A model generated the notes under the pieces. That model ran no database searches. It worked only from the letters and a program-made list of their open reading frames with translations, and was not told where the DNA came from. Of a DNA stretch of 64,000 nucleotides, positions 2,565-20,686 are shown piece by piece (position 1 is the first letter of the stretch; the number at the start of each line of letters is the position of its first letter). Source of the stretch: Arcobacteraceae bacterium (GTDB lineage: Bacteria; Campylobacterota; Campylobacteria; Campylobacterales; Arcobacteraceae); contig OY759974.1 of the NCBI GenBank assembly GCA_963662945.1, positions 2,176,001 to 2,240,000 of the forward strand. The letters are read 5' to 3'. Both the position numbers and the translations under genes were made by a program.

Positions 2565-2610
2565 ATCTTAACCTTTGGTTTATCTATATAAGGGAAGATT
2601 ATATCATAGT

Positions 2611-2630
2611 TGAGTCTTAAATAAGTCTCA
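2611..2630. promoter_or_regulatory. Imperfect palindrome upstream of an extended -10 (TGnTATAAT, minus strand) of the CheW-domain gene
   Basis: TGAGTCTTA-AA-TAAGTCTCA, one mismatch between arms. Confidence 0.35.
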
Positions 2631-2684
2631 AAACATAAATAATATATAATAACTTATATAAAATATATACAATTATATGTTTAT

Positions 2685-2984
2685 TTAGTGTTTTTTATAT
2701 TTTTTTGTTAATCTTGCAAAATCATAAAAATCACTTAGCATTAGATAACGAATTTGTATGTCATCAAACTTTTGCAATAGTGGCGAAAAACCTTCATGAA
2801 AAAGTCTTACATCATTGATAAATTCTTTTGGATATTCTAATTTCTCTTCTTTAAGTTTGCCAAAACAGGTCATAAATTCAAGAAATAATTTATTGACAAG
2901 TTTTTCTTTTTCTGGAGTTTGTTCCTGTAAAAACCCACTAAGTTTTTCAAACTCTACACATATTTTTGTTAAACAATCATTCAT
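2685..2984 (-). CDS. hypothetical protein (99 aa)
   Basis: ORF track; plausible composition; preceded by a sigma54-like promoter. Confidence 0.75.
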   Translation of the reverse strand: MNDCLTKICVEFEKLSGFLQEQTPEKEKLVNKLFLEFMTCFGKLKEEKLEYPKEFINDVRLFHEGFSPLLQKFDDIQIRYLMLSDFYDFARLTKKYKKH

Positions 2985-3019
2985 TTATAGTTCTTTTTAT
3001 TAATTTCAAAGAGGACATA

Positions 3020-3036
3020 TTCATTTTTTATACCAA
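3020..3036 (-). promoter_or_regulatory. sigma54-like -24/-12 promoter (GA variant at -12)
   Basis: TTGGTATAAAAAATGAA, GG-N10-GA, ~37 nt upstream of ATG 2984. Confidence 0.5.
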
Positions 3037-3139
3037 GTGATTAATTACAGTGTTGTAATAGAGTTGATATAAGTTTAAGTTAATTTTAATTTAGAAAGTA
3101 ATATTCTTGAGTTATTTTAAAATTTACGGGAAGAAGTTT

Positions 3140-3952
3140 ATGAAATGGCTAATTATTTTTATTATTTGTAGTTCATTATTTGCCAAAGATGTCATACGAT
3201 TTTCTCCTTTACCTATGGAAAGTGCCTCTAAAACCTTAGAGATATTTAAACCATTTATAGAATATTTAGAAAAAAAAAGTGGAAAAAAAGTTAAATTAGT
3301 TTACCGTGCTACAAATCTAGAGATAATAAAAGGACTTAAAAATAAAGAGATAGATTTAGCACATTTTGGTCCATTACCTTATGTTATTTTAACCAAAGAG
3401 TATAAAGATATTGTTCCTATTGCACAATTTCTTGAAAAGAATGGTAAAAATAGCTATACCTGTACTTTATTTAAAAGAAAAGATACAAAAATAGATCTAC
3501 ATAAGATTCAAAATAAAAAATTTGCACTGACACATAAATATTCAACTTGTGGATATGTTTTTGTTGAAGATATGTTGAAAAAATATGATAGTTCTTTAAC
3601 AAATAATGAATTCAAATATTTAGGCTCTCATTATACAGCAATTGCTGATGTTGTTACAGGAGATTATGATATTGGAGGTGTGAAAACATCCATATATGAT
3701 CAATTTAAATATTTAGATGTTGAAGCTATCGGAATAGGAGAGGAAAATCCAAGTTTAATGTTGGTTGCAAATACAGCAACACTTAGTAAAGAAGAGATTA
3801 TTCAATTTCAGACAATCATTACATCTGCTACAAAAAAAGATAAGAAGGATTGGGATGTAAAAATTAATAGTGCAGCAAAAATACCAGACATTCAAGCTTT
3901 ATTACAGTATCAAAAAAGAGTAGAAAATATTGAGATAGAAGATGAAAAATAA
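3140..3952 (+). CDS. PhnD/PtxB-like phosphate/phosphonate substrate-binding protein
   Basis: Signal peptide MKWLIIFIICSSLFA; IDLAHFGPLPYV, STCGY, GSHYTAI motifs; start moved from 3107 to ATG 3140. Confidence 0.8.
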   Translation: MKWLIIFIICSSLFAKDVIRFSPLPMESASKTLEIFKPFIEYLEKKSGKKVKLVYRATNLEIIKGLKNKEIDLAHFGPLPYVILTKEYKDIVPIAQFLEKNGKNSYTCTLFKRKDTKIDLHKIQNKKFALTHKYSTCGYVFVEDMLKKYDSSLTNNEFKYLGSHYTAIADVVTGDYDIGGVKTSIYDQFKYLDVEAIGIGEENPSLMLVANTATLSKEEIIQFQTIITSATKKDKKDWDVKINSAAKIPDIQALLQYQKRVENIEIEDEK

Positions 3953-5816
3953 AAGATCGTTAATTAGTCTTATTTTAGTTCCTATTACTTTAGTTTCTAT
4001 TGTAATTATTTTTATTACTTATGAAACATTTAGTCATTATTTACAAAAAGAATATGAAAAACAACATTTATCCAAAATAGAACAAGATGCACAAAGACTT
4101 TTTTTAATTATGAAAAGTAGATATACAAATATAATATTTCAATCTATTGATGATAAAGAATATTATATAAGATTGGTACAAGCTTTAAAAGTAGATTTGC
4201 AAAGAGATTTAAAAAATGAACTATCTTATTTAAAATATGATGGATATATTTATGATATAAATACTGATTCTATGATTGAATTATATATGCAAAATAATTT
4301 TATCCATATGAAAAATGATTCAAACATAAAAAAAGCTTCTATAGTATCAACACAAGAGGGCGATTTTATAGTTAAACAAATAGAATTTAAACCTTTTAAG
4401 TGGGTAGTTGTAATTTCTAAAAATACTGATGACTTACAGCGAGATATAGAAGAAAACTTGCTTATTACACTTCTTTTTATGATTATAATGCTCTTTTTTA
4501 TTATTTTGATTTTTTTATTAGTATTTAACAAATACATAAAAAAAGATATTGTAAAAATTATAAACCATTTTAAAAATAAATTGGTAAATAATCAATATGA
4601 ATTATTACAAGTAGATATGGTTTCTCAAGAAACACAAGAACTTGAAGATGGATTGAATAGTGCAATTTTAGAAATAGAAAAATATGCTAAGCAATTAGAA
4701 ATTGCAAATCAAAATCAAGATATATTGTTATCATTATTTGATAATGGAGATACAGTTTTAGTCAAATGGAATAATGATCAAAACTGGAGTGTTAAATATA
4801 TTTCAAAAAGTATTTCAATTTTATTAGGGTATAAACAAGAAGAATTTTTAGAACATAAAATATCTTATAAAGATTGTATATATAAGGATGATTTGGATTA
4901 TGTAGAATTTGGTGTTAAAAAATCTTTGTCAAAAAAATTTAGATTTTTTAAATCAGAACCATTTAGATTAGTAACTAAAAATGGGAAACTCAAATGGGTT
5001 ATTAGTCATTCTATACCTGTAAAAGATAAAAAAGGAATTGTAAGTCATTTTGTAAGTCACATATCAGATATTACTTATTTAAGAGAAAAAGAAGTAATAG
5101 TTTCACAACAATCTAAATTGGCTTCAATGGGTGAAATGATAGGAAATATTGCCCATCAATGGAGACAGCCATTATCGATTATTTCAACAGGTGCTACTGG
5201 TATGCTAATGCAAAAAGAACTCTCTGCACTTAATGATGAAAGTTTTGAACAAACTTGTAATATGATAAATGAAAATGCACAATATCTGTCTAAAACTATA
5301 GATGATTTTAGAAATTTTATAAAAGGCGACAGAGTTAAAGAAAAGTTTACTATTGAACGAAGTATAAATCGTTTATTGAGTTTACTGGATGGTTCCATTA
5401 AGCATCATAATTTGACAGTGATTGTTGATATAGATAAAACAATTGAAATAGATAGTTATGAAAATGAACTGACACAATGTTTGATGAATATATTTAATAA
5501 TGCAAAAGATGCATTGAAAGAAAATAATAAAGAGAATGATAGATTAATTTTTATAAGAGTGAAAAGAAAAGACAATTTTGCCATTATAAAAATAAGAGAT
5601 AATGGAGGAGGAATACCAGAAGAAATTTTGCCAAAGATTTTTGAACCATACTTTACTACAAAACATAAAAGCCAAGGTACTGGACTAGGACTGCATATGA
5701 CTTATAATTTAATAGTATCAGGATTACAAGGTACAATTGAAGCTAAAAATGTTAAGTTTAAATATCAAAATACTATGTACAAAGGTGCAGAATTTAAAAT
5801 TGTATTAAAAATTTAA
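3942..5816 (+). CDS. Membrane PAS-domain sensor histidine kinase
   Basis: Two TM segments, PAS region, H-box [10 protein letters not shown]-box [10 protein letters not shown] boxes DNGGGI and GTGLGL. Confidence 0.92.
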
Positions 5817-6244
5817 TGAATACTTTGACAAGAGTCACTACTTTGACAAGTTGGTACTGAAATTCTTTCGCAAATATTTGTGTTAAGTAATTTATTTATT
5901 TTTTCTATATCAAATCCACATAAATAACTACTGCCAATTTGAAGAAGAGGTCTTTTAATTAAAATAGGCTCTTGACACATTCTCTCAATCAGTTCTTCTT
6001 TTGTAAAGTCTTCTATTTTTAATTCATTATTTTTTATTTTAGGTGCAAATTGATTTACCATGGCACTTTTGTTTAAGCCTTGAAAAAAAGGTTCTAACGT
6101 TTCTTTTGTCCATGGAGTATCAAGCAGGCTTTTTGTTTGATAAGAAAGACCATTTTTTTCTAAAACTTGTTTTTGTCTTTGGTTTCCAGAACAACCTGTT
6201 TTTTCATAAAAAACTATAGTGTACTTATTTGGTATAAATTGCAT
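5813..6244 (-). CDS. ArsC/Spx-family protein resembling the nitrogenase-associated subfamily
   Basis: FYEKTGCSGNQRQK N-terminus, PILIKRPL motif. Confidence 0.75.
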   Translation of the reverse strand: MQFIPNKYTIVFYEKTGCSGNQRQKQVLEKNGLSYQTKSLLDTPWTKETLEPFFQGLNKSAMVNQFAPKIKNNELKIEDFTKEELIERMCQEPILIKRPLLQIGSSYLCGFDIEKINKLLNTNICERISVPTCQSSDSCQSIH

Positions 6245-6252
6245 TTTTTTCC

Positions 6253-6822
6253 TTAATTCATATATGGTATATCTAATGTAGCATCTCTATCACTAGCACT
6301 GAAATCATAACTATCATCAGTATTGAGTTTTGACAAATTTTTTTCGACCATTTTGATTTGAAGTATATGATAGTTACTTTTTTCAATGTTATATTGTATT
6401 TGTGTTTTGTAATAACTTAAAATAATTGGATGAATTTTATCTTGATTTTCAAGCAATTTTTCTAAAAAACTTTTTATTTTAGAGATATCATATTCATCAA
6501 TTTTTTTTAACTTTCGTAATAAATTTCTTACAAATTGTTTTTGGTGGTATTGTTCGCTAATAGTTAAAAGTTTTGAAGCAGCATAGATATCTGCTACAGT
6601 TTCAGAATAATTATAAAGATATCGAAAGTGTTCACAAACTATCTCTATATATTTTGGATAGTGTTTCAGTACAAAAACAAGCTCTTTTAAGTCTCCATCC
6701 ATCAACACTTGGAATAAAGTTGCAGTTCTTTTTTGTATCTTTTCCCAGTGACCACTACCCTCCGTAGTATTTAAATCACCTAAAAATCGTTCATAATTTT
6801 CTAAATCATATTCTTCTTCCAT
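6253..6822 (-). CDS. hypothetical protein
   Basis: ORF track uses TTG 6837, which lies inside the sigma54 -12 element, so ATG 6822 is preferred. Confidence 0.75.
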   Translation of the reverse strand: MEEEYDLENYERFLGDLNTTEGSGHWEKIQKRTATLFQVLMDGDLKELVFVLKHYPKYIEIVCEHFRYLYNYSETVADIYAASKLLTISEQYHQKQFVRNLLRKLKKIDEYDISKIKSFLEKLLENQDKIHPIILSYYKTQIQYNIEKSNYHILQIKMVEKNLSKLNTDDSYDFSASDRDATLDIPYMN

Positions 6823-6832
6823 ACCGTAAATA

Positions 6833-6849
6833 TGCAAGAAGTGTACCTA
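6833..6849 (-). promoter_or_regulatory. sigma54 -24/-12 promoter
   Basis: TAGGTACACTTCTTGCA, GG-N10-GC. Confidence 0.7.
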
Positions 6850-6862
6850 TATTAAATAAAAT

Positions 6863-8731
6863 TTATAGGGAATAAATAGTTGTTTGATTTCTCCCATTAT
6901 TTTTTGATTCATATAGAGCTATATCAGCTTTTTTGATTAAAGTTTCTTCTGTATCATCAGTAGTAAATTGACCAATACCTAAACTAATCGTTTTTTGTCC
7001 TATTTTGTCAAAATTATAATTTGCAACCTCATTTCTGAGCTTTTCAGCTAAAATAAATGCTTGGTCTTTATTAGTTTCTGGACAAATAATAAGAAACTCC
7101 TCTCCTCCAAATCGTCCAAAAACATCTGATTCTCTTATAAGGTTTGTTATTAATTTTGTAATTTTAAAGAGTACTTTATCTCCCATTTGATGTCCATAGT
7201 TATCATTAACATCTTTAAAATGATCAATATCTACAATGATAAGTGAAAGATTTTTAGAATATCTTTTAGTTACAGACAATTCATATGCTAAAAATTCATC
7301 AAGTTTTCTTCTGTTTAAAATACCTGTAAGTTTATCTATTGAAGAGAGTTTCTCTAACTCTTTTTTAAAAGTGATATCTTGACCAACAGATACAAAAGAC
7401 TCTATCTCTTGGTTTTCATTTCTAATAACTATGATATTTTGTTCTAACCAAAATTCAGTTCCATCTTTCTTTTTATTGTGTAGTTCTCCACTCCAGTTAT
7501 CATTATCTAAAAGAAAGTTCCACATTTTTTTGAAAAATTCTTTTTTTGTTTTTTCATGTCTGATAATATTCATAGGTTGCCCCACAAGTTCTTCTTTACT
7601 GTATCCGCTTGCATTTTCAAAAGCAGTGCTAACTTCTAGTATCTTTGTATCTTTTGTTGTTTTAGCACTTACAACATATTTGTCCAAAATTGAAGCAAAT
7701 CGCTCTAATTCTTTATTTGCCAATAAAAGTGCTTTTTGTAATTGTGCTGGGCGAACGGAAGCGTAAAATGCCATAATAAGACTAGCTAAAATACTTAATA
7801 GTATAATATAAAATGTTGCTTTTAACTTATCAAATAATATTGCACCCTGGTATGATTCTCTTGGTTTTAGTACCATTAGTGCCTTATCTTCATTATTTAA
7901 AATATCATTTAAAGGATAAACATAACAAGAATCACATTTAGTAGGATTGGATAATAACTGGATGGCATCTTTAGAAAAATCTTGACTAAGTGTTCTTGAA
8001 ACACCTTTATATTTATTAAATGAAAATTGATCATCAGGATGCATAATATAGTTACCATCTTTATCAATAATAAAATGATCAAAAGCAGATGAACTACGAA
8101 TTGAGTTAAATAAGTTTGTTGTGAGCATATTTACTATAACCATACCTATAAATTCATTGTTTTTATCAAAAAGAGGTTGTGCAACTCTTAGTGTTGGTCG
8201 ATATGGAACTTCAATTTTTCCATGTTCAACATTTAAATTGAATTTTGAGTGCCATATTGTAGATTTTTTTAGTTGTGAGACTTGTTCAAAATAATCTCTA
8301 TTTTTTTTATTTTGTAGTTTTGTAGTTTCTACTAAAAAAGGTTCATTTTGTTCATTTGTTCTATCAACTCTTACTATTTCCATCCCATTTTTATCTATAT
8401 ATCTTAGTTGCATAATTTTTGTATTAATACCAGCTATTGATAAAAATATATTGTTGAGCTCATAAAGTTGATGCTGGTCTTTTGTTTCTAGATAGCTTTT
8501 CATTGTAGGATTTTTAGCTATACTTTTTACAATATTATCAATATCTTTAATTTTCTCTTTAAGTATAGTAAATTTTTTGATAATCATCACTTCATTAGCT
8601 TTATTGTCTAAATCAGTTTTAAGACTTCGTAGTTGAATGTTATAACTGATAATACCACCAAAAATAGATACTATCATCCCAAAGAGTATAAAATAGATTG
8701 TAAATACAGTTTTAAAATTTTTTTGAGTCAT
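6863..8731 (-). CDS. Cache-PAS-GGDEF diguanylate cyclase
   Basis: RESDVFGRFGGEEF (I-site plus active site), two TM segments, PAS; start moved to ATG 8731. Confidence 0.9.
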   Translation of the reverse strand: MTQKNFKTVFTIYFILFGMIVSIFGGIISYNIQLRSLKTDLDNKANEVMIIKKFTILKEKIKDIDNIVKSIAKNPTMKSYLETKDQHQLYELNNIFLSIAGINTKIMQLRYIDKNGMEIVRVDRTNEQNEPFLVETTKLQNKKNRDYFEQVSQLKKSTIWHSKFNLNVEHGKIEVPYRPTLRVAQPLFDKNNEFIGMVIVNMLTTNLFNSIRSSSAFDHFIIDKDGNYIMHPDDQFSFNKYKGVSRTLSQDFSKDAIQLLSNPTKCDSCYVYPLNDILNNEDKALMVLKPRESYQGAILFDKLKATFYIILLSILASLIMAFYASVRPAQLQKALLLANKELERFASILDKYVVSAKTTKDTKILEVSTAFENASGYSKEELVGQPMNIIRHEKTKKEFFKKMWNFLLDNDNWSGELHNKKKDGTEFWLEQNIIVIRNENQEIESFVSVGQDITFKKELEKLSSIDKLTGILNRRKLDEFLAYELSVTKRYSKNLSLIIVDIDHFKDVNDNYGHQMGDKVLFKITKLITNLIRESDVFGRFGGEEFLIICPETNKDQAFILAEKLRNEVANYNFDKIGQKTISLGIGQFTTDDTEETLIKKADIALYESKNNGRNQTTIYSL

Positions 8732-9027
8732 TCTTTTGAATACCTTTTCATTTGATATCTTTATAACATAAATTATTATAAATTCTACTGAGATAAATAA
8801 AATATTGTGTAAGTTTGGATGAAAAGAATTATAATTAAATAATTTATACACTAATTTTTTAAAAAAGAAATTTTTAAGAAATAATCTTTGCTTATAATGA
8901 AATAAAAGAAAAAAAGGTAGTGGTTATGAATATGTATAGGTTATCTACAAAACTTATTGAAAAACTAAAAAAAGCCTCAGTAAAAATATCAAAAAAACAA
9001 AAAAACAAAAGAAAATAAATTATTCTT

Positions 9028-9044
9028 TAGGTACACTTTATGAA
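9028..9044 (+). promoter_or_regulatory. sigma54-like promoter (GA variant)
   Basis: TAGGTACACTTTATGAA; first 11 nt identical to the 6833-6849 site. Confidence 0.6.
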
Positions 9045-9078
9045 TATAATAAAGCATATTCATAAAGGTAACAAAACT

Positions 9079-10257
9079 ATGTTAGAAAAAATATCATTTG
9101 GTACATATCGTACTACATTTCAAAATCCAGTTCACCAAGAAGCTATAAACTATGCACTTGATAATGGAATAAAATCTATAGATACCTCGTCAAACTATAT
9201 GTATGGAGAAGCAGAAGTTTTAATAGGACAAGCTTTACAAGGTAGAATCCGAGAAGAATTTACAATAGTTTCAAAAGGTGGATATATACAAGGGCCAAAC
9301 CTTCAAAGAGTAAAAGAAGGTTGGAAAGTTGAAGAACTTGTAGAGTATGACCCTAATTGTTTTCATAGTATCTCTCCAATGTTTTTAGAAGATCAAATTT
9401 CTAATAGCTTACAAAGATTAAATACCTCATATATTGATTGTTACTTACTTCATAATCCTGAGTATTATCTTCTTACAAATTTAAAAAGTAATGCAACCGA
9501 TGAAGATATAAAAAAACATCATGCAATTATGCAAGAACGTATAAAAAAGGCATTTGCATTTTTAGAAATAATGGTAACAAAAGGAAAAATAAAATCTTAT
9601 GGTATTAGTTCTAATTCTTTTGCAAAGAAAGAAAACGACTATCATTTTTTAGAGTATAAAAATCTTATTGAGTATGCAAAAGAAGTATGTGGAAAGAATC
9701 ATCATTTTAAAGTGATACAACTTCCTTTTAATATGTATGAAAAAGATGGAGTTCCTTGTGCTAAATGGGCATATGAAAATGGCTTGGAAGTCCATGCAAA
9801 CAGACCATTAAATGTTTTTTTTATGGGTGGAATGTTAAGACTTGCTTCTTATGAGTCTTGTGAAGATTTTGATGAATTACTAGAAAACGTGCGTAAAATA
9901 AAAAACGATAAGTTACAAAAACTTATTGATGATCTTCTAGAAAACCAATCAAGATTTGGATTTGCAGGTGATGTTGATGATACTATAGAATATCAAGTGA
10001 TACCATATATTATACAAGGAATACAAATAGAGCAAGAACATTATCAAACAATAGATAACTTTTTAACTTGTTATAAACAAAACATCAAATATTCATTAGG
10101 AAAAATTACTGCAAAAAAACTTGATTTACAAGAGCCACTTGATAAAATTGCATTAGAATATTTATTGAAAAAACATTATATTTCAAAAATTTTAGTTGGT
10201 ATGAGAACAAGAAAATATGTTGATAAAGTTATATCATATACACAAGAGGAAAAATAA
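9079..10257 (+). CDS. aldo/keto reductase family protein
   Basis: ISFGTYR, IDTSSNY, SKGG, YLLHNPE, ILVGMR; start moved to ATG 9079 after AAGG. Confidence 0.85.
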   Translation: MLEKISFGTYRTTFQNPVHQEAINYALDNGIKSIDTSSNYMYGEAEVLIGQALQGRIREEFTIVSKGGYIQGPNLQRVKEGWKVEELVEYDPNCFHSISPMFLEDQISNSLQRLNTSYIDCYLLHNPEYYLLTNLKSNATDEDIKKHHAIMQERIKKAFAFLEIMVTKGKIKSYGISSNSFAKKENDYHFLEYKNLIEYAKEVCGKNHHFKVIQLPFNMYEKDGVPCAKWAYENGLEVHANRPLNVFFMGGMLRLASYESCEDFDELLENVRKIKNDKLQKLIDDLLENQSRFGFAGDVDDTIEYQVIPYIIQGIQIEQEHYQTIDNFLTCYKQNIKYSLGKITAKKLDLQEPLDKIALEYLLKKHYISKILVGMRTRKYVDKVISYTQEEK

Positions 10258-10259
10258 AA

Positions 10260-10487
10260 ATGAAAAAAATAAAACAGCCATTTAATCCGAATGCTTTTGA
10301 TGTAAATTTAAAAGTATCTGATGTAGTAGAAAAATTTCCGCAACTTTTAGAAAACAATTATCAAACAGTAAGTTTAAATGAAGAACTTACAAAATTAAAT
10401 TACGAGATAGCTTCAAGAGATTATGAGGATAAAAAATATGAATCTATCGAAGAATATTATGATTTAGATGTGGATTATATCGTATAG
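10260..10487 (+). CDS. hypothetical protein (75 aa, acidic C-terminus)
   Basis: GAGG RBS; 2 nt after the AKR stop. Confidence 0.7.
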   Translation: MKKIKQPFNPNAFDVNLKVSDVVEKFPQLLENNYQTVSLNEELTKLNYEIASRDYEDKKYESIEEYYDLDVDYIV

Positions 10488-11093
10488 CTCTTCAAATCTA
10501 TAATGTTCTTTTAGAAGCTTTAATGAGTTTTTAAAGGTACGAGTTTCTTTTTCATCAAATTCAGAACCATTGAGTTTTAATTTATCGTAAATAGTATTAA
10601 GTTCTTTTTTTGACAGTTGTGTTAAGTCTTCATTATGCATTAGGTCTTTAATTTCATTTATATCTGATTGTGGCATAGGAAAGTCAGTATAATATTGTCC
10701 TATTTTATTTACACCCCAAAAATCAATTCCTAATCTCAGATAAAATTGTAATGAAGATGAAACACAATGCATTTTGACTCTTTCAATATCTGCTTGAAGA
10801 AGTATATTATTAAATAGTAAAGTTAAGAGTTGTTTTGCATAACCTTGAAATCGAGATTCAAATGGAGTAAGAATATTATGAATTGTAAGGTATTGATTGT
10901 TTCTTGAAATATGAAAAAAAAGATAACATACATCTTCTCCATTATCTTCTAAACAAAGGCAAGGAAATTTATTCCAACTATAATAACTATCCCACCAATC
11001 AAGTGATTGTTGTGCAAATTGCTGTGAACCTGCGTGTTTGATGTGGGCGATAGATTGAATGTATTGTTCTCTGTTTAAATTTTTTGTTGTCAT
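10464..11093 (-). CDS. GNAT-family N-acetyltransferase
   Basis: RFQGYAKQLL acetyl-CoA motif A; SLQFYLRLG; start likely ATG 11093. Confidence 0.7.
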   Translation of the reverse strand: MTTKNLNREQYIQSIAHIKHAGSQQFAQQSLDWWDSYYSWNKFPCLCLEDNGEDVCYLFFHISRNNQYLTIHNILTPFESRFQGYAKQLLTLLFNNILLQADIERVKMHCVSSSLQFYLRLGIDFWGVNKIGQYYTDFPMPQSDINEIKDLMHNEDLTQLSKKELNTIYDKLKLNGSEFDEKETRTFKNSLKLLKEHYRFEELYDIIHI

Positions 11094-11161
11094 TTTGGCT
11101 CTCTTTCGATTACAGGCCAAATGTCTAATTTTAAGCAATAAATCTTTATTAAATAATACTC

Positions 11162-11178
11162 TGCAAGTACTATACCAC
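11162..11178 (-). promoter_or_regulatory. sigma54 -24/-12 promoter overlapping the upstream DGC stop codon
   Basis: GTGGTATAGTACTTGCA, GG-N10-GC. Confidence 0.65.
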
Positions 11179-13122
11179 TACTTTATTTCTACCACTTTCT
11201 TTTGCTCCATAAAGTTTGTTGTCAGTAAGTTTATATATCTCTTGAGCTTGATAGGTATCATTAAAATCTATAATAAAAAGTCCCATTGAGATAGTAACAT
11301 ATTTAGAAGCAGAATTTCCTGTATGTTCAATATGTAAAGCTTCAATATTTTCTCTAACTTTTTCTGCCATAGAAAAAGCATCTTCTGAAGTTTCTACAGA
11401 GTAAAGCATACCAAATTCTTCTCCACCTAGTCTAAAAATATAGTCGCCAGCTCTATTTAAACTCTTTGTCAAAGACAGTGCCACTTTTTTGAGGACACTA
11501 TCCCCTTCTTGATGACCATAAGTATCGTTGTATTGTTTAAAGTGGTCTATATCCATAATTGCAAATGCTAAAAGTTTTTTGTCTCTTTCGGCTATTTTTA
11601 TTTGTTTTTCAAATATCTCATCAAAATATCTTCTATTGTATAGATTTGTTAACCCATCTGTAATAGAGATAGTATGGAGTAGTTTGTTAGCTGTAATATT
11701 TTGTGCATAGGAGTGATAACCAATAATCTTGTTATTTTTATCTTTCATAGTAGTAATATTAAGATGTATCCAGTAGGTATTTCCCTCTTTATTTACATTT
11801 TGTAGCTCTCCACTCCAGCTACCATTTTCTTCTAAACTTTTATAGAGTTCTTGATAAGTTTCTTTTGGCGTATTGATGCCTGAAAGCATATTATGTTTTT
11901 TCCCTATAAGTTCCTCTTTTGTATATCCTGTAAGTTCACAAAATGCACTTGAGACATTTACCATTTTAGATTCTAAATCTGTAGTGGAAAAAGCTACATA
12001 CTTATCAATAATTTTACTCTCTCTTGAAAGTTCTTCTTGTGTTTTCATCAACTCATTACTAAGCTTTACAGGGGCGATTGCCATTAAAAATGCTATAGGG
12101 ATAGAGATAATAAAGATAATCAAAGTAATAGTTATGATATAGCTTGACTGCTGTTTTTTCATCTGCTCTATTTTATCTTGATCAAATTCATATAAAAGTA
12201 TAAGACCATCTTCATTATATAAACTATCTGATATATTATAAGAGAATATCCCATCGGTACTAAATTGTTTCAAATTTAAAATTTTTGATGCAACTGCTGG
12301 AAATTCTGTTTTTAAAGAGATGTTTTTATTGAGATGTTTTGACCAAGAATAATCCTCTATATTTCCTTTTGTAGTTTTTTCATAATGGATAAAATCACCA
12401 TTTTTATCTATAATAGAGACTTTAAAAAGTGCTGATTTTATAATTTCATCAAGTATAGATTTTGCAAATATGTTTATGATAACAATACCTTCATATTTAT
12501 GCTTAATATACATAGGCATTGCAATTCGTAAGGTTGGAGTAAGGGGATAGCTGATTTTGTTGTTTTCAATATTAAGATCAATTTTTGAGCTCCATATTTC
12601 ATTCTCATTTTTCCCTTTTGTTTGTTGAAAATAATATCTATCAGCTTTGTTTTGAAGTTTTTCATCTGGCATAATATAAGGTTTTGAAGCTATGTTATTT
12701 CTATCAATTCTTATATTTTCTAAACCATTTTTATCTATATATCGTATTTGCATAAGTTCATCAACAACAACCATATGACTTTTTAAAATCTCTTGCATAT
12801 TTTCTTTGAACTTTTGTTTCATTTGAATATCATCGTTATTTATACTTATATATTGTTGGAAAGTTTTATTTTCATTGATTGAATGTAAAATATTTTCATA
12901 AATCTTTATATGATTACTTAGAGTTGAAATTTTTAGTTCAAAACTACTTTGTGCTGAGTCATAGAGTTCTTCATTGATACTCTTTTTTTCATAGTAGGTG
13001 CTTACAAAAAATGAGATAAAAGCAATAATAAGTCCAAATATTCCAAAAAGAAATATAAAAAGAGCTCGAACATTAAATGAACTTGAAAATATAAATTTTG
13101 TAAAATTACTTGATCCTTGCAT
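11170..13122 (-). CDS. Cache-PAS-GGDEF diguanylate cyclase
   Basis: RAGDYIFRLGGEEF; periplasmic region paralogous to 6863-8731. Confidence 0.9.
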   Translation of the reverse strand: MQGSSNFTKFIFSSSFNVRALFIFLFGIFGLIIAFISFFVSTYYEKKSINEELYDSAQSSFELKISTLSNHIKIYENILHSINENKTFQQYISINNDDIQMKQKFKENMQEILKSHMVVVDELMQIRYIDKNGLENIRIDRNNIASKPYIMPDEKLQNKADRYYFQQTKGKNENEIWSSKIDLNIENNKISYPLTPTLRIAMPMYIKHKYEGIVIINIFAKSILDEIIKSALFKVSIIDKNGDFIHYEKTTKGNIEDYSWSKHLNKNISLKTEFPAVASKILNLKQFSTDGIFSYNISDSLYNEDGLILLYEFDQDKIEQMKKQQSSYIITITLIIFIISIPIAFLMAIAPVKLSNELMKTQEELSRESKIIDKYVAFSTTDLESKMVNVSSAFCELTGYTKEELIGKKHNMLSGINTPKETYQELYKSLEENGSWSGELQNVNKEGNTYWIHLNITTMKDKNNKIIGYHSYAQNITANKLLHTISITDGLTNLYNRRYFDEIFEKQIKIAERDKKLLAFAIMDIDHFKQYNDTYGHQEGDSVLKKVALSLTKSLNRAGDYIFRLGGEEFGMLYSVETSEDAFSMAEKVRENIEALHIEHTGNSASKYVTISMGLFIIDFNDTYQAQEIYKLTDNKLYGAKESGRNKVVV

Positions 13123-13166
13123 AGAGTACCTTTTTCTTTGTTTTGTAACAGAATAAATTAATTGTA

Positions 13167-15149
13167 CTATAAACTATCTATATCTTTTATAATCTTTTGA
13201 ATATTAGTAGAGTAACTAAAACAGCTACTTATCTTACACGCTAAATACTCATCACTATCATACTCTTTTTTATAAACAAAGGGATAGTTGAAATCTTTTG
13301 GTGAAAATTTTTCAAGATTTTCTTTTCTTGCTTTGATAAATACAGGTTCATATTGAAAATACAAAGATGCCATTGTAGTATTTGGAAAATATGAGGGATA
13401 TTTGTTGATATGTTCTATGTAGTATTGCATTGATTTTTTTACTATCTCATATACTTTGTAATCTTCTTGCATAGAACTATAGAGTATGAGGTTGTTAAAA
13501 AGTACCCCTAAAGCACTTGCATACCCACTCTCTTCAATATCTGCATAAGTTTCAAATCCATCATTTGATTCTATCCATCTTCCATCTTTGTAAAACAGTT
13601 CAATTGATTTTTTTACAAGCTCTTCATAGAGGGTGAGATATTTCTCATCTAAAGTAATTTGATAGGTTTCAAACAAGGTATCAATCAAAAAGCTATAGTC
13701 TTCTAATATCCCACTTTGAACAGGTGTTTTCCCTTTGATTGTTTGGTGGTAAAGTTCCCCATTTTTATACATCAAAGATATTAAACTATCAAGTGAGCTT
13801 AGTGAGTTTTTTAGGTACTCTTTATCTATTGTAGAAGCTATGAGTTTCCCTTTTAGATACAAGGCATTCCAAGCTGTATTTATTTTATTGTCTATAAATG
13901 GATACTCTTTTGTATCGCGGATTTGTTTTAAAAGTGTTATAACTTTTTTTAGGTTTTGTGGTTTGTTTACCCCTAAAATCTCTGGGTTTGAATACTCCCC
14001 ATCAAAGTTTCCATCTTTTACAATTCCTAAATATTTAAGTGACTCGATGGCATCTTTTTCATCAATACCATTTTGTTCTAAATACTCTAAACTCTCTATA
14101 TAATCAAAGACAAAATAATACCCCTCTTCATTTTTCCCTTGGGCATTTTTGCTATCTGCATTACTTGCACTTTTATATACACCATCTTCTAAAAATCTTT
14201 CATCAATTTGAGAAATTGTTTTTTCAATAATCTCTTTAAACAAAGGCTCTTTTGTAATTTTGTAAGCTAAGGTGTATGCTTCAAGAGCTTCTGCATTGGT
14301 ATATAACATCTTTTCAAAATGTGGTATTGTCCATTTTTGATCTACACTATATCTATAAAAAGCCCCCTCAATTTGATCAAATATACCACCTCTTGCCATA
14401 GCTTTTAGAGAATCTACAGCCATAGTTAAAGCTTCTTTGTCACCGTTGATTTGATAGAGTTTTAAAAGCAATATAAGATTTGTAAATTGTGGAAACTTTG
14501 GATGTGTACCAAACCCTTTATACTCTTTGTCATAACTATTTTGAAATTGAGTGATAAGAGTATCTACTACCTTATCATCATAAGTTGCTTTTGAGAGTTG
14601 AAAGTTTTCTTTACTGTTTACCACTTCAAGGATATGTTTCCCTTGCTCTTGTAATTTTGTCCTATCAAAAAGAGCAATCTCTTTTAATACTTCTATAAGT
14701 CCTCGTGAGCCATATCCCGCATATTTTGGTACATAGGTTGCAGAAAAAAATGGCTCTTTGTCAGCTGTCATTGCAATAGTAAGTGGCCATCCACCACCTC
14801 GTTTATTCATCACTCTGTAAACTTTTTGATAAAAACCATCAATATGAGGAAACTGCTCTCTATCTATTTTTATAGAGATAAAATCTTTGTTTAAAATCTT
14901 TGCCACCTCTTCATCTTCAAAAGACTCATGTGCCATCACATGACACCAGTGACAAGTGCTATATCCAATAGATAGAAAGATAAGTTTATTTTCTTTTTTA
15001 GCTTTAGAAAAAGCTTCATCTCCCCAAGGGTACCAATTCACTGGATTGTCTTTGTGTTGTAAAAGATAAGGGGAAGTTTCATTTTGTAATTGATTTGCCA
15101 TAATAATTCCTAAAAAAATAATAAATAATAGAAGAGCTTTTGTAAACAT
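13167..15149 (-). CDS. YyaL/SSP411 (DUF255 thioredoxin-like plus helical barrel) protein
   Basis: [50 protein letters not shown] before ATG 15149. Confidence 0.9.
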
Positions 15150-15258
15150 AGTAAACTCCTTTTGATTAATCATAGCACTTGATTATTAAGAGATATTGAA
15201 AATTATAATTGAGTTTTTTGAATAATATTGGATTTATTTAAAGAGTTTGGAGAAGGAG

Positions 15259-16398
15259 CTATTTATCAAAAATAACCAAACTTCTCCCAAATGGTATCTT
15301 ATTTTTATTTTGAGATAAAGCCCATATCACTTCATATGCAGGTGGGATTCTTGGAAAAATCCCCTCCCCATCAGTAAAGTATAATAACATACTAGACATT
15401 GGAATATTTGCATCAATATACTCAAAAGTAGGGCGATAGTCTGTTCCACCTCCACCTTTGAGTGGAAAATCCATCTCTTCTCCACCCATAAAACTATGGT
15501 GCGAGTGTACCTTCGCATCTGCTATAAGAAGTTCTATAGAAACAGCAGGGAAGTTTTGCATGATAGATTTAAACTCCCCTATAAATGCTCCTAAGATATC
15601 TTCTCGTATTGACCCAGAGGTATCTATGGCAACTATGAGGCTTAGTGTATCACTGGTTAAACTTGGCAGTGCTACACCCCTATAGATATGTTTTTTGTTT
15701 GGTGGCATGAAGGCATAGTTATTTCTCATGTGACGATTGATGGCGTTGTAAAGTTCAAATTTCCAGTCGATGTCGTTTGCTTTGATTTTTTTGGCAAATC
15801 TTTCAAGTCCTAGTGGAGTTGAGCTGTTTTTTAGTGTAACTTCTTTTGCTAAACTAGCTGCATAGTCCCACTCCTCCATAGTTTTTTCATCATCTGGATT
15901 GTTGATATTTTTGAAAATAGAGCTATCTCCATCTTTTTCTTTTATAAAGCTTTCTAAGTTTTTTACATCATCATAACTACTTGTACCATTTTGTTCTGCA
16001 AATTCTTTTTTAAGTATCTCATATATCTCTTCAGAATACATATTTTTATACTCAGTGTTGTAGTTTGCACCCTTTGGTATTTTGAGTTTATTTTTGGCTA
16101 ACATATTATTTATAGCATAGTCAGTTGCCAGTTGCCACAATACACCTTTACGATTTAGTTTTCTTTGATTGTGTGCTAAAATATGGTGCATAACGCAGTT
16201 TGTAAGGATAAAAAAAAGTTCATCTTGTGAGAGACTTTCTATATAAGTTGGATTATAGATAAATCTTTTACCATTACTTGCAAAATAATCTATAGCAGAA
16301 TTTTCCTCATGCTTTAATCTTGAAGCTAACATCCCAAAGTAGGGGTGTTTTGCTGTGAGTTGACTTTTTGCTTTGGTTAATTTAAGAGTTGCATCCAT
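15259..16398 (-). CDS. DUF2201-type metallopeptidase-like/vWA-like protein
   Basis: ATDYAIN, MIDAS-like IDTSGS, GGGGTDY, YFTDG. Confidence 0.85.
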   Translation of the reverse strand: MDATLKLTKAKSQLTAKHPYFGMLASRLKHEENSAIDYFASNGKRFIYNPTYIESLSQDELFFILTNCVMHHILAHNQRKLNRKGVLWQLATDYAINNMLAKNKLKIPKGANYNTEYKNMYSEEIYEILKKEFAEQNGTSSYDDVKNLESFIKEKDGDSSIFKNINNPDDEKTMEEWDYAASLAKEVTLKNSSTPLGLERFAKKIKANDIDWKFELYNAINRHMRNNYAFMPPNKKHIYRGVALPSLTSDTLSLIVAIDTSGSIREDILGAFIGEFKSIMQNFPAVSIELLIADAKVHSHHSFMGGEEMDFPLKGGGGTDYRPTFEYIDANIPMSSMLLYFTDGEGIFPRIPPAYEVIWALSQNKNKIPFGRSLVIFDK

Positions 16399-17399
16399 TA
16401 GTGTAGTAAGGTATTGAACTTTCTAGCCCATAGTGGCCAACTTTTTATATAATCAAGTGCAATATCACGGCTTCGTAAATCTTGCACTATCATAACAGCA
16501 AATTCTCCTGGTAAATTAAGAGTATATTTAAGAAGATTATCTAATTCGGCTGCTCTTGTTTCTTCGTCTATTTTCATAGTAAGTGAAGTACAAAGTATAT
16601 GTAAAGCAGAAGTTTCTTCAGGTACATCTGTACTAGTTCCATCAAGAATTTTATCTATATCTGGCAGGTTTTTTGCAACACTTTTAAATCCTAAAAAGGA
16701 AGCAGCCAACTCTTGCCCAATAGCACCACTTACCATATCCATAAGAAGGTCATCATCTGGCGTTGAAGCTAAAATCTCATTGACATATTCCCAAGTTCGT
16801 GGAGTTGCAAATGCTTTTGAGTCATTTTGTGTATTAAAAGCAAAAAGAGCATCTGGTCTATAAGAAGTAAAAGCGATAATAGTAGGGTCAATATCTGTAG
16901 TTTTTGCCCAAGCTTGCCAAACATCTAAATCAACTTCCATATCAAGGTGAACAAATCTATTTGCAAGTGGTGAAGCCATACGAAATACAACGCCTCTATC
17001 ACTTTCTCTATTTCCAGCAGCAACTATAGCCCAACCATCAGGCAAAGTGTATTCACCTATTTTTCTATCAAGGATTAACTGATAAGCACTTGCTTGTACC
17101 ATAGGAGCTGCTGTGTTAAGTTCATCTAAAAATAAAATCCCCTCTTTAACACTTCCATCAGGTAAAAATGAGGCTTTCGCCCAAACAGCACTATTATCTG
17201 CACTATCAAAAAATGGTATTCCTCGTAGATCTGTAGGGTCTAAAAGTGAAAGTCGTAAATCTATAAAACCTATCTCTCTATCTTTTGCAATTTGAGATAC
17301 GATTGAAGACTTTCCAATACCTGGAGGTCCCCATAAAAATACTGGTACTTTTCTTTTTGTTAAGTGGTCTATTGATCTTTTTGCTTTACTTGGATTCAT
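16398..17399 (-). CDS. MoxR-like AAA+ ATPase
   Basis: Walker A GPPGIGKS, Walker B FLDELN, AAGN, LANRF; AAGGAG RBS before ATG 17399. Confidence 0.9.
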   Translation of the reverse strand: MNPSKAKRSIDHLTKRKVPVFLWGPPGIGKSSIVSQIAKDREIGFIDLRLSLLDPTDLRGIPFFDSADNSAVWAKASFLPDGSVKEGILFLDELNTAAPMVQASAYQLILDRKIGEYTLPDGWAIVAAGNRESDRGVVFRMASPLANRFVHLDMEVDLDVWQAWAKTTDIDPTIIAFTSYRPDALFAFNTQNDSKAFATPRTWEYVNEILASTPDDDLLMDMVSGAIGQELAASFLGFKSVAKNLPDIDKILDGTSTDVPEETSALHILCTSLTMKIDEETRAAELDNLLKYTLNLPGEFAVMIVQDLRSRDIALDYIKSWPLWARKFNTLLH

Positions 17400-17428
17400 A
17401 TATGCTACTCCTTGGTTTGTTAAGCTTA

Positions 17429-17445
17429 TGCAAGAAGTATGCCTA
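17429..17445 (-). promoter_or_regulatory. sigma54 -24/-12 promoter of the MoxR-vWA operon
   Basis: TAGGCATACTTCTTGCA, GG-N10-GC. Confidence 0.7.
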
Positions 17446-17492
17446 AGTGTTATTTGCTTTTTATTATAATCCTGCGAAATGGAAATACATAT

Positions 17493-17630
17493 ATGCAAAC
17501 AATAAGTATTTTAGGAAGTGGTTGGTTAGGCTTGCCTTTTACTTTTAAAAACCTAGTTCAATATACAGAAAACTCACAAATAAAAAAGTTAATTTTTTAT
17601 CAAGTCCTGCAAAGCTTCGAAAACTGTTGA
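17493..17630 (+). pseudogene. Internally deleted remnant of an NAD-dependent epimerase (homolog of 18615-19349)
   Basis: MQTISILGSGWLGLPF joined directly to FKNLVQYTENSQIKKLIF; the intact copy has MHSISILGSGWLGFPL...FKNLAQDVKKSQIKKLIF about 60 aa apart. Confidence 0.8.
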
Positions 17631-17633
17631 TAG

Positions 17634-18446
17634 CTAAGACGAGGCTTGACAATTATATTGTTCAATATAATATTTCATATCAAACAAATCAATCTGCTGA
17701 TAGTACGGAGCATAAGGAATCTTAGGACGCTTAAAAATAACACCCCTAACAGCCATTACTCCAAGAGCACCTGCAACGTAAGAATTTGCAGTAGATGAAG
17801 GAATGTGACCTTTCCCAGCAAGTAATTCCTCTACAGCATAACCATAATGAATGTCACTTGTAGGATTGGGATAAACCCCTTTAGCTAATTTTTTAAAGAA
17901 CGTGTCTTGTGTTTCATTTTCATCCAAACCAAAATACTGGTCAAAAGAGATTCCACATTCTTTATCAAAAACAAGACAGATTGAACCTTGTCCCACTAAG
18001 TAATTTGAAACAATAGGCTTGCCTGTTTCATAGGCATACTGATTTAGCTTTTGCTTAACATTACCAGCAGTCACATCAATAGCATCCATAACAAGATCAG
18101 CCCAATCTACAATCTCCTTATAGTTTTCAAGAGTCACTCCATCGTGATACTGCTTTAATTGAACTTCAGGATTAATATCCTTTATCGCCTCTGCTACACA
18201 TTCAACCTTGCTTTTGTCCATTGTTTTCATACTTGAACTAAACTGACGATTTAAATCAGGAGGATCAAAAAGGGCAACATCAGTAATGAGTAAGTTTTCG
18301 CAGCCAAGACGCACAAGAGATTCAGCATAACGTCCACCAACTCCACCAACTCCTAAAATTGCAATTTTCGTATGACGTAGCTTTTCCATCTCATCACTAC
18401 TGACTGTTCCAATATTCCGCCCAAAAGCCTCATCATAGTTGAACAT
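17634..18446 (-). CDS. ThiF/MoeB/HesA-family adenylyltransferase
   Basis: IAILGVGGVGG, DLNRQF, KVEC, DAID; GGAGG RBS before ATG 18446. Confidence 0.85.
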   Translation of the reverse strand: MFNYDEAFGRNIGTVSSDEMEKLRHTKIAILGVGGVGGRYAESLVRLGCENLLITDVALFDPPDLNRQFSSSMKTMDKSKVECVAEAIKDINPEVQLKQYHDGVTLENYKEIVDWADLVMDAIDVTAGNVKQKLNQYAYETGKPIVSNYLVGQGSICLVFDKECGISFDQYFGLDENETQDTFFKKLAKGVYPNPTSDIHYGYAVEELLAGKGHIPSSTANSYVAGALGVMAVRGVIFKRPKIPYAPYYQQIDLFDMKYYIEQYNCQASS

Positions 18447-18614
18447 TTTCCCCTCCAAATAACAAAAAATTTAAATAAACAATAATATAATATATATTAA
18501 TGTAAGATAAATATATTTTAACTACTTAAAGTATATATTACAAAAAAGTAAAAGTGGAAGAGTATGTTTAAAGAATTTGATCATATAAAATTCAATATAT
18601 AGTTTAGGATATTT

Positions 18615-19349
18615 ATGCATAGTATAAGCATATTAGGAAGCGGTTGGCTTGGGTTTCCTTTGGCAAAAGAGTTATCTGCAAAGTACGATATAAAACTAAC
18701 AACTAAAACAAAAAGTAAAATAGCTGGTTTAGTTTTTAAAAACATAGAACCATATTTAATAGATATAGATAATCTTTCTCAAACTATTGAAGAGTTTTTA
18801 GAAGCGGATATTTTGATTATCAATATACCATCAAAAAATATTGAGGCTTTTAAAAATTTAGCCCAAGATGTAAAAAAATCACAAATAAAAAAGTTGATTT
18901 TTATAAGTTCAACTAGTGCATGTAGAGATGAGAAAAGTTCCCTTTTAAAGATAGAAAAAATATTTCAAAATATTGATAAACAAACTACTATTTTACGCTT
19001 TGGTGGACTTATCGGATATGGAAGAAACCCAGCAAACTTTTTTAAAAACAATAAAATAGTACCAAATCCACAAACACCTGTAAATATGATACATAGAGAT
19101 GATTGTATCTGTATCATACAAGAGATTTTAAAACAAGATGTTTTTGATGAGGTTTTTAATTGTTGTAGTCCTACCCATCCTACAAAAAAAGAGTTTTATA
19201 CTTATTGTGCTATATCTTCTTGTTTGCCTATTCCTACTTTTGATACAGTAGAAAACAAAGAGCAATATACTATAATTTCAACTGAGAAACTAATAGATAA
19301 ATTAAACTACCAATTCATCCATCCTGATTTGATGAAAATACAACTATAA
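18615..19349 (+). CDS. NAD(P)-dependent epimerase/dehydratase (YeeZ-like)
   Basis: GSGWLG, FISSTS, LRFGGLIG, VNMIHRDD. Confidence 0.85.
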   Translation: MHSISILGSGWLGFPLAKELSAKYDIKLTTKTKSKIAGLVFKNIEPYLIDIDNLSQTIEEFLEADILIINIPSKNIEAFKNLAQDVKKSQIKKLIFISSTSACRDEKSSLLKIEKIFQNIDKQTTILRFGGLIGYGRNPANFFKNNKIVPNPQTPVNMIHRDDCICIIQEILKQDVFDEVFNCCSPTHPTKKEFYTYCAISSCLPIPTFDTVENKEQYTIISTEKLIDKLNYQFIHPDLMKIQL

Positions 19350-19359
19350 AAGAGTAACA

Positions 19360-19803
19360 ATGAAAGTAAAATATATAAAAAAACTGATGATCTCAGGTAT
19401 CAGTGTAACTACAAACAATACAAATGAGATGAATGAAGAGACACAAAAGATAGCACCACTTTGGGAGAAATATGACACAGAAAATATTTATGCAAAAACT
19501 TTCAATAAAGCAAATGATTCTAGTTTTTATGGGGTGTATTCTAATTATGTTTCAGATTTCAATGGTGACTATGATGTAACAGTTGGGGTGGAAGTAACAA
19601 CGCCAAAAAATGCAATAATCATAGAAGATGAAAGATACTTAGTATTTACAAAACAAGGGGAACTTCCAGATGTTGCTTTTGAAGCTTGGCAGGAGGTATG
19701 GGATTATTTTGCAAACAATAGTGAATATGAAAGAAAATATACGGTAGATTTTGAAAAGTATTCAAAAGAAGATGAGATAGAGATTTATATAGCTATCAAA
19801 TAA
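19360..19803 (+). CDS. GyrI-like/Cass2 effector-binding protein
   Basis: YGVYSNY, GELPD..WQEVW, DFEKY, IEIYIAI. Confidence 0.85.
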   Translation: MKVKYIKKLMISGISVTTNNTNEMNEETQKIAPLWEKYDTENIYAKTFNKANDSSFYGVYSNYVSDFNGDYDVTVGVEVTTPKNAIIIEDERYLVFTKQGELPDVAFEAWQEVWDYFANNSEYERKYTVDFEKYSKEDEIEIYIAIK

Positions 19804-20416: not shown

Positions 20417-20485
20417 AAAAATGTAATAAACTTCTATGGAATAGATAATGTAGTACTTTTAGAATAAAATCTATAAGGAGTCACT

Positions 20486-20686
20486 ATGCAACATCATGTA
20501 GTAGTAGAAAAATTGTGCGGTTGTGCAAAAAGAAAGAATATGCCTCAGATTAAAACATTTGAAGATAAAGAAAGTGCTTTGAAAGTAGCACGAGCATGGG
20601 CTCAAGAGTTAAATAATACTTTTTGCGGAGAGCATGAATTTAATGTAGTTGAAGTAGATGACAACTATGTTATCTCTGTGAGTTAA
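20486..20686 (+). CDS. small hypothetical protein with CGC and CxxH motifs
   Basis: AAGGAG RBS; LCGCAKR...FCGEHEF. Confidence 0.8.
   Translation: MQHHVVVEKLCGCAKRKNMPQIKTFEDKESALKVARAWAQELNNTFCGEHEFNVVEVDDNYVISVS

Follow-up and report, generated by a model that had tools for sequence, protein, structure and literature searches.

The subject of this work is a window of 64,000 nucleotides (nt) from an Arcobacteraceae bacterium (bases 2,176,001-2,240,000 of the single 2.50-Mb contig OY759974.1, G+C 28.9%), in which a first-pass annotation had proposed five sigma-54 (RpoN) promoters in front of eight genes. We found that the motifs of this window are very probably sigma-54 promoters of the nitrogen-fixation (nif) regulon. 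Four of the five sites are firmly regarded as real sigma-54 promoters and one, site 1, tentatively. Co-regulation of the genes behind them with nif is well supported by comparison of genome sequences. Positions given below are those of the window unless they are marked as genome positions.

Sigma-54-type sites in the window

Sigma-54 promoters follow the consensus TGGCAC-N5-TTGCW, with GG at -24, GC at -12 and ten bases between. All five 17-mers of the first-pass annotation were present at the coordinates and on the strands that it had given: site 1 at 3020..3036(-) (TTGGTATAAAAAATGAA), site 2 at 6833..6849(-) (TAGGTACACTTCTTGCA), site 3 at 9028..9044(+) (TAGGTACACTTTATGAA), site 4 at 11162..11178(-) (GTGGTATAGTACTTGCA) and site 5 at 17429..17445(-) (TAGGCATACTTCTTGCA). 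Each lies on the correct strand before a start codon, and the gap from the end of the motif to that codon is 35 nt at site 1 (ATG 2984), 10 nt at site 2 (ATG 6822), 34 nt at site 3 (ATG 9079), 68 nt at site 4 (ATG 11093) and 29 nt at site 5 (ATG 17399). For site 3 this holds only with the gene start revised to 9079. The -24/-12 pattern that had been assigned to all five sites was seen in full, as GG-N10-GC with TTGCA, at sites 2, 4 and 5; sites 1 and 3 have A at -12.

The pattern GGYAYANNNNNTGMA has six matches in the window against 0.67 expected, and none of 100 shuffles reached six. Because this pattern is post hoc, the sites were tested with evidence from outside the window. The final weight matrix was made from 18 promoters, none of them a window site, and was used to rank the ~5.0 million positions of the genome. 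Sites 2, 4, 5, 3 and 1 ranked 6, 14, 16, 33 and 268, respectively, and at least 10 bits were reached by 361 positions genome-wide, of which 50 are intergenic. With a matrix of nine sites from the nif region the ranks of sites 2, 4, 5, 3 and 1 were 13, 48, 73, 184 and 29,147. The nine-site matrix was biased toward GGAA and under-scored GGTA and GGCA sites; the 18-site matrix was adopted for this reason. The sixth pattern match, at 14728(+) and rank 389, lies within the DUF255 gene on the wrong strand and is probably a chance match. A scan of the sigma-70 type gave 106 promoter-like sites against 120.5 expected, and terminator-like sequences numbered 3 against 5.1 expected, so that neither was in excess.

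Two paralogous dCache-PAS-GGDEF genes, at 6863-8851(-) and 11170-13122(-), end right before or overlapping sites 2 and 4. Any upstream activator site there would therefore lie inside a cyclic diguanylate (c-di-GMP) signalling gene.

RpoN, its activator and the nif genes

As the annotation had anticipated, the genome encodes rpoN. According to profile searches, the gene (genome 715,339-716,592) comes directly after a cluster of nifN, nifX, a nifX-associated gene, a flavodoxin gene and nifW, and its product scores 163 bits with PF04552 and 526 bits with NF004602. The sigma-54 activator domain PF00158 gave ten matches in the genome, only one of which spans the whole domain (261 bits); the others reach at most 30 bits and represent other AAA+ proteins. 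The sole enhancer-binding activator is thus a protein of 506 amino acids (aa) encoded at genome 452,391-453,911, with a GAF-like N-terminus, an AAA+ domain and a C-terminal helix-turn-helix, and it is most similar to NifA. A response regulator of the FlgR type was not found in the genome. Sigma-54 holoenzyme is unable to open a promoter without an enhancer-binding activator. Since the only activator here is NifA-like, every functional sigma-54 promoter of this genome should fire together with nifHDK.

The NifA-like gene is located 13 kb from nifHDK (genome 467-471.5 kb), and nifE follows at genome 497 kb. The nif genes nearest to the window are nifB (genome 2,300,000) and nifV (genome 2,304,849), 60-66 kb rightward. 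Thus nifHDK, nifE, nifN, nifX, nifW, nifB, nifV and a NifA-like activator are all present, and none of them lies just left of the window, where the annotation had proposed to look for nifHDK and nifA. Promoter motifs were found before nifH (TGTGGAACACTATGTGCATTA), nifE (AACGGAATATCTTATGCATAC), nifX (TATGGAACAGTTTTTGCATTT), nifV (AGTGGAATAATTCTTGCATTAT) and nifB (TATGGAACACTTATTGAATATA), and nifW belongs to the same motif-carrying set. The nifB motif has A at -12, and this GG-N10-GA form is kept in 6/6 genomes of the genus. Similar sites precede a second clpX, the nifQ-nifS-nifU operon, the cowN operon and a reductase-flavoprotein pair.

Just upstream of the NifA-like gene are a sigma-54 site at genome 454248(-) and a 69-aa open reading frame (ORF), which suggests that the activator gene is positively autoregulated from that site. 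The second clpX of the nif region has its own sigma-54 site, and clpP ends the nifQ-nifS-nifU gene string (genome 446588-447835 and 476565-477167).

The w189 operon

Site 2 precedes the first gene of an operon, at 6253..6822(-), which encodes a 189-aa all-alpha protein of no named family, here called w189. The motif GG..TTGCA, with its first G 25-27 nt before the ATG, was found in 26/26 w189 ortholog loci of six genera. Within the genus, GG-N8-TTGCA is present in all nine w189 loci (this genome and eight others), four of which have a different upstream gene; the five other genera carry the motif in 17/17 loci. In this genome the -12 C stands 12 nt before the A of ATG 6822. Because the first G of the motif is only 25-27 nt from the ATG, the w189 messenger RNA is predicted to be leaderless, starting at the A of the ATG or at most 2 nt upstream.

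The w189 protein gave no Pfam or NCBIfam match, and Pfam hits at E values up to 1 were noise only. Its 253 homologs are all named hypothetical, and the source names seen were only campylobacterotal. The invariant residues include His25, Trp26, Cys63, His65, His131 and His152, as well as an Asp. An AlphaFold2 (AF2) model is all-alpha with a predicted local distance difference test score (pLDDT) of 82. Foldseek against the PDB returned no match to this model at E<=1e-3, the best ESM Atlas score was 0.83, and the best Z of a wider structure search, 7.2 over 62 residues, is within the noise for helical proteins.

The second gene, at 5813..6244(-), encodes a 143-aa ArsC/Spx-fold protein (PF03960, 35 bits, cut-off 24). 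Its best family is TIGR01616, 'nitrogenase-associated protein', with 102.6 bits over model positions 2-126 of 126, somewhat below the cut-off of 109, in line with the resemblance noted by the first-pass annotation. The gene also comes after w189 in three other genera (g12, g20 and g21). The third gene of the operon in relatives is the 99-aa gene, here at 2685..2984(-). Its orthologs were found in nine other genomes of the genus, all with rpoN, and it stands directly behind the ArsC-like gene in 8/8 loci examined. Only in this genome are the two separated, by opposite-strand genes at 3107-5816(+) for a periplasmic phosphonate-type binding protein and a PAS histidine kinase. As the ArsC-like and 99-aa genes are contiguous in all eight relatives, the stretch 3107-5816 looks like an insertion specific to this genome, judged from gene order.

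Site 1, between this apparent insertion and the 99-aa gene, scores 10.6 bits. By the rank of this score (268 positions in 5.0 million), a site of at least 10.6 bits is expected in about 0.5% of 100-nt stretches. Site 1 is identical to the reductase promoter of genome G103 at 14/15 bases. We consider it fairly probable that site 1 is a real sigma-54 promoter specific to this genome, and treat it as tentative.

The aldo/keto reductase gene

Site 3 lies before a gene for an aldo/keto reductase (PF00248, 96.5 bits, cut-off 24). The longest ORF of this gene starts at ATG 9040, inside site 3. As the orthologs begin at residue 13-14 of that ORF, the true start is placed at 9079, giving a gene at 9079..10257(+) for 392 aa, and it is only with this revised start that site 3 is upstream of the gene. 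The motif GG[TC]A[CT]A..TG[ACT]A was found at the same place in 10/12 loci of the genus, where the -12 base is A in four, C in three and T in three. In other genera the corresponding site reads TTGTAT in 6/6 loci. A paralog of the reductase, 32% identical, stands behind a sigma-54 site in the nif region. The 75-aa gene at 10260..10487(+), 3 nt after the reductase gene, encodes an acidic protein with no family match in profile searches; judged by its position only, it is assigned to the reductase unit and presumably co-transcribed.

The GNAT-fold gene

Site 4 and the stop codon of the preceding GGDEF gene overlap. The form GGTATA.TACTTGCA is kept in 6/8 ortholog loci, and the upstream sequence differs in three of these six. 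The gene behind it, at 10464..11093(-), encodes 209 aa with an N-terminal GNAT fold and C-terminal helices. The first-pass annotation had named this protein a GNAT acetyltransferase. The sequence gives little for this name, with Acetyltransf_7 at only 15.5 bits (cut-off 27, E 0.023) and no match in a profile search of PDB sequences. The AF2 model has a pLDDT of 66 overall and of at least 70 over the first 110 residues. With this model Foldseek returned 285 PDB matches at E<=1e-3, and all the matches listed are acetyltransferases, nearly all explicitly of the GNAT type; the best among them is 4pv6_D (E 6.5e-6, template modelling score 0.61 normalised to the target). The protein is thus a GNAT by predicted fold only.

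A leader of ~55 nt before the GNAT-fold gene, 11094-11160(-), contains AAAGATTT..GCTTAAAATTAGACATTTGGC..ATCGAAAGAGAG and is conserved in 7/8 loci, including both that lack the sigma-54 motif. RNAalifold predicts 0 pairs in it, and an Rfam search over window positions 2000-21500 gave no match at E<=0.1. A second promoter or a site for protein binding may be located in this leader.

The MoxR-VWA pair

Site 5 precedes MoxR-A, at 16398..17399(-), which encodes a MoxR-type AAA+ ATPase of 333 aa (AAA_5 28.5 bits, cut-off 22; AAA_3 28.4 bits, cut-off 27). Its orthologs are 83-97% identical and were found only in rpoN-positive genomes of the genus. MoxR paralogs form three groups. The motif is present before group A, the type of the window, in 10/11 loci and before group C in 3/4, and it occurs in promoter position in 0/15 loci of the housekeeping group B, which is present also in genomes without rpoN.

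The start of the partner gene, at 15259..16398(-), overlaps the MoxR-A stop. The partner (379 aa) had been described as a vWA protein; it matches DUF2201 (VWA-like, PF09967, 80.5 bits) and DUF2201_N (putative metallopeptidase, PF13203, 106 bits), so the pairing of a MoxR ATPase with a VWA-like protein stands, while the partner has no classical VWA domain. The only PDB matches to MoxR-A were midasin AAA domains (E 1.7e-11), and the partner had no PDB match. A paralog of the partner gene, at genome 2264058-2265284, has its own sigma-54 site. It falls in a second nif-linked module at genome 2261815-2270564, where one sigma-54 site is followed by DUF2201-C, a w189 paralog, a Mqo-like flavin adenine dinucleotide oxidoreductase and a HAD hydrolase, and where MoxR-C stands behind a separate sigma-54 site.

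The DUF255 gene, 85 nt downstream of the partner at 13167..15173(-), encodes a 668-aa thioredoxin-fold protein (PF03190, 219.6 bits) and may be co-transcribed with the MoxR pair. We place it outside the conserved module because in genome G128 the reductase gene and MoxR-A are too close together for it to fit between them.

An additional site at 20438

The first-pass annotation reported no such site before other genes of the window. This did not hold entirely: GGAATAGATAATGTA at 20438..20452(+) has the form GG-N10-GT, with T at -12, ranks 114 and lies 33 nt before a 66-aa ORF (20486..20686(+)) for a small Cys/His-containing protein. The motif GGAA[TC][AG]GATAATG[TA]A is kept in 5/5 close orthologs of this gene despite differing flanks, and in 0/5 distant paralogs. 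The close orthologs occur in only four other genomes, all with rpoN.

Distribution and linkage in relatives

In a sample of 151 genomes of the family, nifH was found above the cut-off in 51, and two more genomes had contig-end fragments of it. The rpoN gene was present in 52, all of which carry nifH (50 in full, two as fragments), and in many genomes it is no more than a few kb from nifH. All 98 genomes in which nifH had no match of any kind lacked rpoN. One nifH-positive genome, G119 (350 contigs), shows no rpoN.

As had been expected of a nif-related system, the genes of the window track nifH and rpoN across relatives. w189 occurs in 26/151 genomes, spread over six genera, and 25 of these 26 are nifH-positive. 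The one exception, an assembly that is 77% complete, is 1 of the 100 genomes that lack a full nifH. In genus g11, w189 and nifH were found in exactly the same four genomes. Within the genus of this bacterium, orthologs of MoxR-A, MoxR-C and the GNAT-fold, 99-aa and 66-aa genes were found only in rpoN-positive genomes; the reductase follows the same distribution except in one assembly, which is considered in the Discussion.

Sigma-54 targets that lie far apart in this genome are found side by side in other genera, where each again has a motif of its own. In g17 and g11 the ortholog of a 125-aa gene (988 kb in this genome) comes after w189, and in g20 the ortholog of a 188-aa gene (2,169 kb in this genome) is beside w189. 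In g12 and g17 the operon that comprises MoxR-C, DUF2201-C and the w189 paralog is adjacent, and a hemerythrin-like or ankyrin gene lies close by. In genomes G103, G128, G131 and G140 w189 and the reductase gene are divergent, with their motifs back-to-back, and in G128 the w189 operon abuts nifB.

Other observations

At genome 2287860-2291745 a sigma-54 site is followed by genes for a 165/199-aa protein (weak Redoxin match), a hemerythrin-like 135-aa protein and an ankyrin protein, and the gene string continues with a GNAT, a 293-aa protein and a patatin-like lipase. The hemerythrin-like ortholog in genus g17 likewise carries the motif. Near 60975(+) in the window the 22-mer GACGGACTGCCTTTTGCATAAT is identical at four genome positions, and the G+C fraction rises up to 0.42 at 60-64 kb; this 22-mer is probably part of a ribosomal RNA operon copy rather than a promoter.

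Discussion

The first-pass annotation had joined eight genes of the window into a co-regulated module, possibly one that matures or protects nitrogenase. Co-regulation linked to nif through sigma-54 is supported by the present analysis, weakly so for site 1; the role suggested for the module is an inference. In the mechanism that we propose, the NifA-like activator and RpoN would drive five or six transcription units of the window alongside nifHDK; the dependence on NifA and the transcription start sites are inferred. One unit would comprise w189, the ArsC-like gene and the 99-aa gene, the last split off in this genome by the putative insertion, with a predicted leaderless transcript. A second would comprise the aldo/keto reductase and 75-aa genes, and the GNAT-fold gene, the MoxR ATPase gene with its VWA-like partner, and the 66-aa gene would be separate units. 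Together with the second MoxR/VWA/w189-like module and other small genes, these units would make up an accessory set, which appears as one island in other genera and in places stands next to nifB.

Such a regulon is of a known kind. In the NifA-RpoN regulons of proteobacterial diazotrophs, for example Mesorhizobium loti R7A, a NifA-type activator and sigma-54 likewise drive nif operons plus accessory genes of unclear role from promoters with GG at -24 and GC at -12. There too rpoN can be island-borne: rpoN2 of M. loti R7A is placed on the symbiosis island (PMC3538637). The regulon described here differs in that it has no enhancer-binding protein other than the NifA-like one, and in that rpoN was never found apart from nif in the 151 genomes of the family. 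It also differs in that TGT-N10-ACA is not enriched, that several conserved promoters, including that of nifB, have A or T at -12, that one operon is predicted to be leaderless and that the accessory genes mostly belong to unnamed families. The flagellar regulon of Campylobacter and Helicobacter, according to the relevant passages of PMC2147049, is a sigma-54 regulon of the same phylum with a single activator system (FlgS/FlgR with RpoN). In contrast, the sole activator here is of the GAF type and closest to NifA. The same passages state that Arcobacter butzleri has no RpoN, FliA or NtrC/NtrB, which would agree with the 98/98 nifH-negative genomes without rpoN if the sampled family includes A. 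butzleri. Among the matches listed, no published account of such a regulon in the Arcobacter group was found in the collection searched. What is unusual is the pairing of one sigma factor with one activator, the conserved promoters without C at -12 and the periphery of unnamed families.

Several observations weigh against assigning these sites to a NifA-driven regulon. The activator scores 511.4 bits with its best family, TIGR01817 (NifA), below the cut-off of 528.85, and it reads GAFTDA at the motif whose usual form in sigma-54 activators is GAFTGA. The NifA upstream activator sequence is TGT-N10-ACA, 80-200 nt upstream of the promoter. The 24 upstream regions of 260 nt contained 3 copies where 2.1 were expected, which is no enrichment, and none was found before any window site; TGT-Nx-ACA with x from 4 to 21 showed no upstream enrichment, and among the thousands of 6- to 8-mers compared in 22 upstream regions no shared word went beyond p ~1e-3. 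Sites 1 and 3 (A) and the 20438 site (T) have no C at -12. Site 1 scores -1.3 bits with the nine-site nif-only matrix and has no counterpart in relatives, where no orthologous intergenic region exists because the sequence upstream of the 99-aa gene is coding. Genome G155 lacks the motif before MoxR-A, and G131 and G134 lack it before the GNAT-fold gene. The reductase gene occurs with a GG..TTGAA motif in genome G089 (contig C174, 2.7 kb), where rpoN and nifH were not detected; this assembly, in 330 contigs, is possibly incomplete or a mixture. w189 is found in only 25 of the 51 nifH-positive genomes, so fixation does not require it. Because samples taken from related genomes are not independent, the counts given above overstate the statistical weight.

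The promoters may well be real and co-regulated with nif while the genes behind them serve general diazotrophic physiology, such as redox balance, oxygen avoidance, c-di-GMP behaviour or nitrogen scavenging, or simply ride a mobile nif-associated island. We put this at not far short of an even chance. It would explain why w189 is absent from 26/51 nifH-positive genomes and why the gene sets differ by genus, with w189, the ArsC-like gene and the 99-aa gene in some and w189 with the 125-aa gene in others. It also suits the further genes found behind sigma-54 sites here, which encode GGDEF/EAL, ankyrin, patatin, hemerythrin-like and HAD proteins, and the profile searches, in which nothing of the accessory set matched known Nif maturation families. 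A closer tie to nitrogenase is indicated by the ArsC-like protein, whose best family is the nitrogenase-associated TIGR01616, by the w189 operon adjoining nifB in G128, and by the MoxR-VWA pairs. Chaperone pairs of this type include CoxD/CoxE (PMC4240915), NorQ/NorD and CbbQ/CbbO, and are known as maturation or activation factors that mature or reactivate metalloenzymes. The present pair resembles them in that an AAA_5/AAA_3 ATPase is followed by a VWA-type partner, whose start overlaps the ATPase stop. It differs in that DUF2201_N and DUF2201 take the place of a classical VWA domain in the partner, and in that two pairs are linked to nif and one further pair is a housekeeping one. No literature on nif-linked MoxR was found in the collection searched.

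It is improbable, in our judgement, that only the canonical sites 2, 4 and 5 function and that the GG-N10-GA/GT sites (1, 3 and 20438) are look-alikes, in which case the AGG and ATG of site 3 would act in translation, as ribosome-binding site and start codon. Compilations of sigma-54 promoters show a nearly invariant C at -12, the ATG within site 3 does begin the longest ORF, and the negative score of site 1 with the nif-only matrix points the same way. However, nifB itself uses GG-N10-GA in all six genomes of the genus, and the reductase orthologs start 13 residues later, and in their motif GG and TG are constant whereas -12 can be A, C or T. The 20438 motif is retained in all five close orthologs despite different flanks, and a site as good as site 1 is expected by chance in only ~0.5% of 100-nt stretches.

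That the motifs are chance matches in AT-rich DNA, or sites of another factor unrelated to sigma-54, is very improbable: the pattern was indeed defined post hoc, and GGNAYN6TGCA has 178 genome matches that are mostly inside genes, but the ranking matrix contains no window site, the motif is conserved over six genera in flanks that have diverged, it is also present before nifH, nifE, nifX, nifB and nifV, and the gene set is found only where rpoN occurs.

If the motifs are promoters of the nif regulon, as we hold, the functions of the genes can be considered only at a lower level of confidence. A metalloprotein of the nitrogenase system could be remodelled or loaded by the MoxR-VWA pairs; the w189 proteins would then be adaptors or clients, and the redox proteins would have a protective role. 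This assignment is tentative, and we judge it to have about one chance in three. Somewhat less likely still is a more specific form of it, in which the two nif-linked MoxR/DUF2201(VWA) pairs and the His/Cys-rich helical proteins of the w189 family would constitute an unrecognised ATP-driven chaperone system for the insertion, repair or protection of a nitrogenase metal cluster in campylobacterotal diazotrophs. Its genes would be switched on by NifA, and the -12 base of their promoters (C, A or T) would be tuned for the output of each unit.

These results link nitrogen fixation to about ten gene families without assigned function, which are candidate nif helpers; among them are w189, the 99-, 75-, 66-, 125- and 188-aa proteins, the two MoxR-VWA pairs and the GNAT-fold protein. 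The conserved promoters with A or T at -12, that of nifB among them, and the absence of the textbook NifA element bear on how such promoters are recognised and activated. The sigma-54 of the family is carried with nif and nowhere else (52/52), which makes it an unusually clean case of one sigma factor, one activator and one regulon.

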